Part shown: positions 31,899 through 32,871 of the stretch, one piece after another | Layout of the letters: every line of letters begins with the position of its first letter | How positions within the stretch are numbered: the first letter of the stretch is position 1 | DNA from: Candidatus Woesearchaeota archaeon | Lineage (GTDB): Archaea > Nanobdellota > Nanobdellia > Woesearchaeales > GW2011-AR4 | Reading direction: 5' to 3' | Assembly: GCA_016185865.1 (NCBI GenBank) | Contig: JACPMU010000044.1 | Coordinates: 1-33,947, forward strand | DNA: 33,947 bases | Notes under the pieces: model-generated | What the model saw: only the letters and a program-made list of their open reading frames with translations | Database searches by the model: none | What the model was told of the DNA's origin: nothing | Program-made: the position numbers and the translations under genes

Positions 31899-31907
31899 TT
31901 TTTAAAT
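31899..31907 (+). promoter_or_regulatory. TATA box of the 5S rRNA gene.
   Basis: TTTTTAAAT centred about 27 nt upstream of the predicted 5S 5' end. Confidence 0.45.
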
Positions 31908-31927
31908 CATTTAATCCTACTTATTGC

Positions 31928-32072
31928 CTTGGACGGTCATAGGGGCTTGGTTCACCCGTTCCCATCCCGAAAGGATGTGCACCAAGCACTTTCCGGGTTC
32001 ACGGAAGTTAAGCAAGCCTCCGTTTCCAGCAGTACTGCACTTATGTGTGGGAACCTGGAAAAGCTGTCCACC
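31928..32072 (+). rRNA. 5S ribosomal RNA with a 28-nt insertion in loop C.
   Basis: GGACGGTCATAG...CACCCGTTCCCATCCCGAA[28 nt]CACGGAAGTTAAGC...AGTACTGCAC...GGGAAC...GCTGTCC. Helix I GGACGG/CTGTCC, helix II GGGGCTTG/CAAGCCTC and helix IV TTCCAG/CTGGAA all pair. Ends are approximate to +/-3 nt. Confidence 0.85.
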
Positions 32073-32073
32073 T

Positions 32074-32871
32074 TTATATTCTCTCCAAATCTTTTTTAGA
32101 ATGAATATGCACTTCTTTTTCAGAGCTTAAATGGCCGTTAAGCAGCCCTTTCTCAGCAAGCTCAGGAAAAACACTGAACTCAAGGCTGGCTCCTGAATAT
32201 TCGAAAATCTGCGGCTCTGCCACAAAGATAGGCGAAAACACAAGGTATATGTCCGATTTTTTAGGCTTTTGGGTGAAGGTAAGCACCTTGTTGCCCTCAA
32301 CTCTTACAGTCCCCTTTTCACTTGGCTTTGAAGATGTAGTAAGCATGATTGTTGCAATTGCATTCTGCTTTATGTGGTCATTCCACAGCTCTTCAATGTT
32401 TATCCTGTTAAAAATTATATCGCCATAAACAACAAGGAAATTGGAATTAATTTTTCCTTTAAGCAGCCTCAAAGAATCCGCAGTGCCACTGGATTGCTTT
32501 TCCTCTATGTAGCTTATTTTTACGCCATATTCTGTGCCGTCCTTCAGCATCTCAAACAATCTTGTCAATAAGCTGTGCCTTGCAACAATAAACACAGTCT
32601 TGAAATTGTTCTCCCTCAGCTTTTTCAAAGCCAATTCTATAACAGAATTGTTTTTTATCCTTGCAGTCGGTCTGTAGTCATCTTTTGAAATTCTCAAATG
32701 TCTGTCATTGCCGCCAAGAAGAATAACAGCTGCTTTGTTCTCCCCCAAAGCGTTCTTGGCAAGGTGCTCTATAGCTTGGCTTCTGTTGCGGATATAGACA
32801 TTGTCAACGATGGAGTCTATGTCCTGCAAAGTTTTCTCATTTATTGTTATTGAAATCTTGGTTTTAGGCAT
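32074..32871 (-). CDS. Ribbon-helix-helix (CopG-like) domain fused to a sugar-phosphate nucleotidyltransferase-like domain (second paralog).
   Basis: MPKTKISITINEKTLQDIDS....RNRSQAIEHLAKNAL, then ILLGGNDRHLRI (degenerate GGxGTRL), GTADSLRLL, VVYGDIIFN and FTQKPK. The track start 32997 is GTG and adds 42 residues with no counterpart in the paralog. The first ATG is 32871. Confidence 0.75.
   Translation of the reverse strand: MPKTKISITINEKTLQDIDSIVDNVYIRNRSQAIEHLAKNALGENKAAVILLGGNDRHLRISKDDYRPTARIKNNSVIELALKKLRENNFKTVFIVARHSLLTRLFEMLKDGTEYGVKISYIEEKQSSGTADSLRLLKGKINSNFLVVYGDIIFNRINIEELWNDHIKQNAIATIMLTTSSKPSEKGTVRVEGNKVLTFTQKPKKSDIYLVFSPIFVAEPQIFEYSGASLEFSVFPELAEKGLLNGHLSSEKEVHIHSKKDLERI

Follow-up and report, generated by a model that had tools for sequence, protein, structure and literature searches.

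Introduction

The bulge-helix-bulge (BHB) motif is defined as a central helix of 4 bp with two 3-nt bulges on opposite strands (PMC7714728). Short hairpin introns of this type, below 50 nt in length, have been described in the 16S rRNA genes of Thermoproteales (Jay and Inskeep 2015, PMC4496867), and BHB introns are also known from archaeal 23S rRNA genes, those of Woesearchaeota included (Nawrocki et al. 2018, PMC6125680). A relaxed form of the motif, HBh', is found in tRNA introns of Thermoproteales, Nanoarchaeum, and ARMAN, located in the D-loop, the T-loop, and other positions (PMC5829648, PMC3239211). The activity of EndA, the tRNA-splicing endonuclease, extends to BHBs outside tRNA, namely the processing stems of the archaeal 16S and 23S rRNAs and the intron of the cbf5 mRNA (PMC7714728).

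Extra segments that are retained in the 5S rRNA are known from Halococcus morrhuae, with 108 nt at position 104.1-105, and from Thermoanaerobacterium and other Clostridia, where they are inserted either in loop C (34-37) or at 52-53 (Stepanov and Fox 2021, PMC7812874; PMC7530397). In the survey of oversized prokaryotic 5S rRNAs by Stepanov and Fox, 104.1-105 is the sole archaeal site and there is no DPANN case; the retained segments leave the conserved motifs uninterrupted and have no complementarity to the core (PMC7812874). In the open literature, full-text phrase search included, we found no report of an intron in a 5S rRNA gene, either of the BHB type or of any other.

Here, we analyze a stretch of 33,947 nt from Candidatus Woesearchaeota archaeon (contig JACPMU010000044.1 of assembly GCA_016185865.1), called the window throughout, in which the 5S rRNA gene carries 28 extra nucleotides at positions 31972..31999. 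The features of the sequence and of its relatives indicate that these nucleotides are very probably an archaeal BHB intron that is removed by EndA and the ligase RtcB, and not a retained expansion.

The 5S rRNA gene of the window

The window belongs to a Woesearchaeota genome of 866 kb, 69% complete and partly assembled, to which we refer as G000. The Rfam 5S_rRNA model (RF00001) matches at 31929..32072 on the forward strand with 55.8 bits, above the gathering score of 38, and the match covers the full model (positions 1-120). A whole-genome Rfam search gives this insert-bearing gene as the sole 5S match in G000. The model alignment sets 29 nt of loop C against a single model position, i.e., about 28 extra nucleotides, and does not absorb them as variation of helix III, which bears out the loop C insertion that a sequence-only reading of this DNA had described. 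Read directly, the letters around the insert are ...CCCAUCCCGAA|AGGAUGUGCACCAAGCACUUUCCGGGUU|CACGGAAGUUAAGC.... Removal of 31972..31999 from the 144-nt gene leaves a canonical 5S rRNA of 116 nt with the junction CCCAUCCCGAACACGG. These letters are also those of relatives without an insert (G049 and G002 among others), and loop C and helix III agree with them, so the boundaries proposed from the letters alone are exact, and the normal loop C and the length of about 116 nt expected from them are obtained.

The precursor form of the gene (31929..32072, forward strand, 144 nt) can be divided into three parts, all on the same strand. Exon 1 (31929..31971, 43 nt), placed by the Rfam alignment and by comparison with relatives, contains the 5' strands of helices I, II, and III and loop C up to ...CCCGAA. 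The predicted intron, AGGAUGUGCACCAAGCACUUUCCGGGUU (31972..31999, 28 nt), is delimited by the Rfam alignment and by tests of the boundary and the helix. Exon 2 (32000..32072, 73 nt), placed by the Rfam alignment, contains the last nucleotide of loop C, the 3' strand of helix III, loop B, helices IV and V, and the 3' strand of helix I.

Direct reading of the flanks reveals a TATA-box-like element, TTTTTAAAT (31899..31907, forward strand), with its center about 26 nt upstream of the 5' end of the 5S gene, and in G066 and G009 the 5S gene is preceded at an equal distance by a comparable CTTTTTAAA. Directly 3' of the gene there is a T-rich tract, TTTATATT (32073..32080, forward strand), which is likely an archaeal terminator; T-rich tracts are also found 3' of the 5S genes of the relatives. 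With TTTTTAAAT as a putative promoter upstream and the T-rich tract at the 3' end, the 5S gene appears to be independently transcribed. An open reading frame of 68 aa that overlaps with the 5S gene, at 31924..32130 (forward strand), is almost certainly spurious.

A search of the whole of G000 with blastn-short found no second copy of the 28-nt insert. A repeated or mobile element was rejected on this single-copy state, and self-splicing introns of group I or group II were rejected on size, at 28 nt. The same 28 nt are present in three independent assemblies (G013, L106, and L113), and in the first of them, Ca. Woesearchaeota RIFCSPLOWO2_01_FULL_38_40, they match the insert of the window letter for letter. 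As the same insert recurs in these assemblies and related inserts are found at the same site, it is not an assembly artefact.

BHB geometry of the junctions

In the minimum free energy (MFE) fold, the 144-nt RNA retains the usual three-way junction of 5S rRNA, and the structure of the insert is located inside loop C. It consists of the 4 bp of CCCG/CGGG, an AAA bulge, an inner hairpin, and UUC, after which helix III resumes. The exon strand of the central helix, CCCG (31966..31969), belongs to the conserved loop C motif, and its pairing with the intron strand CGGG (31994..31997) is seen both in this fold and in the covariation described below. The 5' bulge, AA|A (31970..31972), is formed by three unpaired nucleotides, with a predicted 5' splice site at 31971/31972 for which the cut was calibrated on the tRNA introns of the same genome. 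The 3' bulge, UU|C (31998..32000), taken from the dot-bracket form of the MFE fold, would hold the 3' splice site at 31999/32000. Between both bulges, the inner hairpin h' (31973..31993; GGA.GUGC, a loop of ACCAA, and GCAC.UUC) is adjacent to the central helix; all of these elements are on the forward strand. The two pairings that the sequence-only reading had put forward, the self-fold GUGC-ACCAA-GCAC and the pairing of the 3' GGG of the insert with the CCC of loop C, are thus present together in one fold of the whole RNA, and the search for a BHB motif at the junctions, which it had recommended, found one in a relaxed form.

The 4-bp helix and the two 3-nt bulges on opposite strands are all present, with the 3' bulge facing six unpaired nucleotides, UCCCAU (31960..31965), so that, instead of a pure bulge, there is a 6x3 internal loop with UUC on its 3-nt side. 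The same UCCCAU sets the outer helix, which is helix III of the 5S rRNA, off from the central helix on the 5' strand, and in most relatives the outer run amounts to 0-1 bp. A motif with this arrangement fits the relaxed HBh' class and not the strict hBHBh' one. Symmetric cuts between the second and third nucleotides of the bulges give the canonical 5S rRNA in silico. The geometry is likewise consistent with the A-I pair rule of Eukarya, where nucleotide 32 is paired with intron position -3.

From this arrangement, we can propose how the intron would be removed. In the 144-nt primary transcript, the CCCG of loop C would pair with the 3' CGGG of the intron to form the central helix of 4 bp, flanked by the AAA bulge, the inner hairpin, and the UUC bulge. 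EndA would cut each bulge between its second and third nucleotides, and RtcB would then join ...CCCGAA to CACGG..., giving the 116-nt 5S rRNA and a released intron of 28 nt, probably circular. We infer all these steps from what is observed, namely, the geometry, its recurrence, the covariation, the likeness to tRNA introns, and the presence of the enzymes.

Insert sites, helix recurrence, and covariation

Inserts in 5S genes are located at three sites within 12 nt of loop C and helix III, after CCCAU (site B), after CCCGAA (site A, the one used in the window), and after CNCGGA (site C). We take these to correspond approximately to 40/41, 46/47, and 52/53, respectively, in E. coli numbering. 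In the Woesearchaeota relatives the inserts measure 22-44 nt, most of them 26-31 nt.

With the boundary set so as to restore the canonical 5S rRNA (cut after the second nucleotide of the bulge), all four pairs of the helix are formed in 41 of 42 inserts, from 38 distinct genes, and the exception has three of the four pairs. Arbitrary pairs of positions in the same sequences reach this by chance at a rate of 2.6%. A scan of metagenomes, with a pattern that left the intron strand unconstrained, provided 16 more site-A introns, 13 of which have 4/4 pairs and three have 3/4, the mismatch always being in the outermost pair.

The sequence-only reading had asked for a comparison with related genomes, and this gave inserts at the site of the window in 18 distinct sequences. 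Among them the site A helix is 95.8% paired, and one of its pairs is C-G in 13 and U-A in 5, a two-sided change that affects only one helix pair and is possibly a single evolutionary event. Per-sequence folds show that each site-A relative has a hairpin inside the insert, with stems of different sequence. In several rows of the site A alignment, MAFFT placed the 3' arm one column off, and the counts there cover helix III and the central helix alone.

At site C, all 19 sequences have the helix fully paired (100%); compensatory changes affect two of its four pairs and all five pairs of the inner helix, and slid controls are 22-60% paired. The covariation score of this site is 0.567 versus 0.243 for shuffled data, and none of 500 shuffles reaches 0.567, figures that are not probabilities and whose significance is overstated because the sequences are related. 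The splicing helix of site C is rarely part of the MFE fold (3/21). Many site-C introns share a conserved hairpin loop, approximately UUUGGA(R)CU, on stems that differ (G017, G022, L067, L069, L071, L073, L076, and L077; alignment A2, columns 33-45).

The exon columns of site C covary at 100% also with the 5' strand of the mature helix III, which is a mutually exclusive partner, and this dual covariation points to separate folds for the precursor and the mature RNA. Such pairing with two partners is what would be expected for splicing and fits poorly with an insert that is retained. It is also compatible with a further role of the intron as an obligatory assembly checkpoint, in which its 3' strand would mask loop C (competing with helix III at site C) until EndA acts, gating the folding of the 5S rRNA and the assembly of the 5S RNP. 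Selection for spliceability would explain the dual covariation equally well, and we regard a role of this kind, or a function of the 28-nt circle, as unlikely.

If the 28 nt stayed in place as an extra hairpin of loop C, comparable to the segments of Halococcus and some Clostridia, neither the BHB geometry nor the symmetric cuts that restore the 5S rRNA at three sites nor the covariation between exon and intron would be predicted. Retained insertions in 5S rRNA do exist, the bacterial loop C at 34-37 and the bulge at 52-53 are sterically open (PMC7812874), and the insert of the window is a stable hairpin that leaves the remaining 5S fold intact. However, the known retained segments are not complementary to the core (PMC7812874), whereas here CGGG pairs with CCCG and the conserved motif is interrupted as CCCGAA|C, so that a retained insert would leave CCCGAAC split and its CCCG sequestered in a helix. 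At site C, the intron strand would even compete for exon bases that also belong to the universal helix III, and this would be harmful in a mature RNA. Retention seems to us quite improbable. Of the two possibilities left open by the sequence-only reading, the BHB junctions, the covarying exon-intron helix, and the existence of three sites favor the mini-intron, which it had named second, and speak against a retained loop C expansion.

tRNA introns of the same genome

Four tRNA introns of G000 share the rule of the 5S insert, by which four exon nucleotides followed by NN|N have their counterpart in four intron nucleotides followed by NN|N. Canonical 37/38 introns of tRNA-Val account for two of them, and the others are a D-loop intron of 21 nt and a T-loop intron of 27 nt. 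The two tRNA-Val genes and the T-loop tRNA come out at 72-73 nt once the rule is applied, and the D-loop intron obeys it as well.

The T-loop intron has the same architecture as the 5S insert. It belongs to a tRNA-Gly(GCC) gene (G000:C32:6088-6186, minus strand; locus L050 1393-1491), where a BHB intron of 27 nt, CCCG AG|A AUUUUAGCAAAUGCUAAAAU CGGG AG|U, is located between the T-stem and the T-loop (53/54), and its removal leaves a clean cloverleaf of 72 nt. A tRNA-Phe gene (G000:C43:2804-2924, plus strand; locus L054 1501-1621) has two insertions, the 21-nt BHB intron in the D-loop and another of about 25 nt in the anticodon region, the junctions of which are approximate. In addition, a tRNA-like gene of 86 nt (G000:C83:6531-6616, minus strand; locus L055) has about 13 extra nucleotides in the region of the T-loop (GGGTTCGAAAATGGTTCGGAAATCCC), which could be a very short intron.

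The Rfam tRNA model identifies only 9 tRNA genes in the 866 kb of G000 (69% complete), at least 6 of them with introns. The number given by aragorn is only 7, and introns outside the anticodon loop are beyond its detection; many tRNAs of G000 may be missed owing to non-canonical introns. The 16S and 23S rRNA genes of G000 were sought for further mini-introns, and neither is contained in the assembly.

Splicing enzymes

Both enzymes required by the proposed mechanism are encoded in G000. Its EndA gene (G000:C55:4656-5255) is intact and codes for 200 aa with the N- and C-terminal domains (PF02778 and PF01974), and the best relative with a solved structure is the catalytic subunit of Nanoarchaeum equitans (3IEY_A, E=7e-36). 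When G000 and four or five of its relatives were searched by Pfam and at the protein level, each genome yielded one EndA gene and no beta subunit. Weak second matches to EndA fall in unrelated open frames and were rejected; that of G000, the only one translated, is charged and coiled-coil-like, a false positive. A single predicted EndA of ~200 aa is the gene complement of the alpha4 type. Enzymes of this type have classically been held to be strict for the canonical BHB. A link between loop-bearing alpha4-type EndAs of DPANN and disrupted tRNA genes has been reported from a genome set with a member of Woesearchaeota in it (Kaneta et al. 2018, PMC5829648).

In G036, the EndA gene (G036:C1:149941-150540) is found ~850 bp from the intron-bearing 5S gene (G036:C1:151388-151530). 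This linkage is probably coincidental, as the two genes are 29 kb apart in G021.

RtcB matches were found in four of the five relatives searched, three of them full-length and the fourth starting at model position 49; G021 is the one with no match, and in G000 only a fragment is present, at the edge of a contig (G000:C98:10-324). This incomplete record in G000 and G021 would be consistent with excision, by EndA or another nuclease, that is not followed by ligation, with a 5S rRNA that works as two pieces of 43 and 73 nt held together by helices I-III, like the fragmented 23S rRNA of some bacteria, and the BHB evidence supports cleavage equally in both cases. We consider this very unlikely, because the same cells must ligate tRNA exons that are cut at identical motifs, and the matches in four of the five relatives also speak against it. 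EndA leaves 2',3'-cyclic phosphate and 5'-OH ends, RNA with such ends is the natural substrate of RtcB, and joining of the two 5S exons would be in line with this.

Distribution among relatives

In the genus of the window, 27 of 43 genomes have an Rfam 5S match; the gene is 115-117 nt long in 7 of them, and in the other 20 it is longer or has an insert. Genome G009 is Rfam-negative yet has a 5S gene at L102 1339-1552 (G009:C13), with inserts of 74 nt at site B and 26 nt at site C. Counting this genome, inserts are present in 21 of the 28 5S genes of the genus, and the 7 without an insert have the same exon junctions. G009 is the fifth case of a double insert, the others being G001, G016, and G063, from the genus of the window, and G038, from another family. 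In an even sample of the whole order (151 genomes, ~136 families), a 5S match was obtained in 136 genomes and it was long in only 9. The insert is concentrated in the genus and family of the window and scattered elsewhere.

Genomes G052, G171, and G115 have site-C-like inserts for which the strict rule leaves 2 extra nucleotides in loop B; they remained unclassified and outside the counts. Their loci (L041, L100, and L101, respectively), which belong to other families, have a complementary helix of 4 nt with two extra nucleotides before the canonical exon 2, and this implies either a 3' bulge of 5 nt or two additional nucleotides in the mature loop B.

A site-agnostic pattern scan over one genome per prokaryote species identified 34 loci, 33 of them in MAGs with archaeal labels (Ca. 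Woesearchaeota, Nanoarchaeota, Nanoarchaeia, or "uncultured Methanosarcinales," several of them TPA bins), and many of these loci match genomes of the genus or the order of the window. The exception, L096 (MHMT01000023.1, "Ca. Portnoybacteria"), has a 5S gene identical to that of the Nanoarchaeia MAG L076. A 5S gene of the Woesearchaeota type is also found in the "uncultured Methanosarcinales" TPA MAGs L063, L065-L067, L070, L075, L085, L087, L090, and L091. Judging from these sequences, L096 seems to be a mis-binned contig, and the taxonomy of the MAGs appears to be mislabelled. Last, a metagenome contig (WNFM01311616.1; locus L108, 2275-2350) has a 27-nt tandem duplication of helix III and loop C (CCCGAAC ACGGAAGCACCCGTTCCCAT CCCGAAC) without a hairpin insert, which could be real or an assembly artefact.

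An insert-bearing gene is the only 5S gene in the near-complete relatives G021 (99%), G036 (93%, 8 contigs), G064, G004, and G016, which rules out a pseudogene beside a canonical copy; the sequence-only reading had pointed to such a second copy, and none was found in these genomes or in G000. A non-functional locus, be it a 5S pseudogene into which a small mobile or palindromic element has inserted or an artefact of assembly, is conceivable insofar as G000 is only 69% complete and might have a second 5S copy, but we can practically discard it in view of these near-complete relatives, of exons that are conserved and score as 5S, of the conserved TATA-like element and T-rich tract, and of an insert that is identical in independent assemblies and single-copy in G000.

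Implications

If the splicing of this intron is true, EndA and RtcB would be obligatory maturation factors of the 5S rRNA in a large part of Woesearchaeota, and the substrate range of an EndA that is apparently coded by a single gene would be widened. The 5S gene would also provide a compact natural case of one exon segment selected for both its precursor and its mature pairings. Standard 5S models miss genes with several introns, like that of G009, and since this multi-intron gene is Rfam-negative, the reports of "missing 5S" in DPANN may partly be artefacts caused by introns.

Comparison with known systems

The segments retained in 5S rRNAs resemble the case described here in that the gene is oversized and the insert folds on itself, and the Woesearchaeota site at ~52/53 coincides with one of the sterically open sites. 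The difference is that the insert of the window splits CCCGAAC and pairs with it in a BHB geometry. With the BHBs of the rRNA processing stems and of cbf5, the insert shares the 4-bp helix flanked by 3-nt bulges, but those motifs flank whole rRNAs or are found in an mRNA, and none of them is inside a 5S rRNA.

The BHB introns of 16S and 23S rRNA genes and the insert of the window are both small non-coding hairpins in a conserved rRNA region, with a BHB at the junctions and a patchy occurrence among close relatives, and in both the removal is presumed to be carried out by EndA and RtcB. Unlike the 16S introns, the host gene is that of the 5S rRNA, the organisms belong to DPANN and not to Crenarchaeota, the motif is relaxed and has no adjacent outer helix, and the three sites are within 12 nt. 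The non-canonical tRNA introns share the 4-bp helix, the 3-nt bulges, the inner hairpin, and, in the T- and D-loop introns of G000 itself, a length of ~21-27 nt, with the same enzyme presumed to act on them; in contrast, the substrate here is a 5S rRNA, and the body of the tRNA, which may aid the docking of the enzyme, is absent. Taken by its sequence features, the insert of the window is probably a known type of intron in a new host, the 5S rRNA gene.
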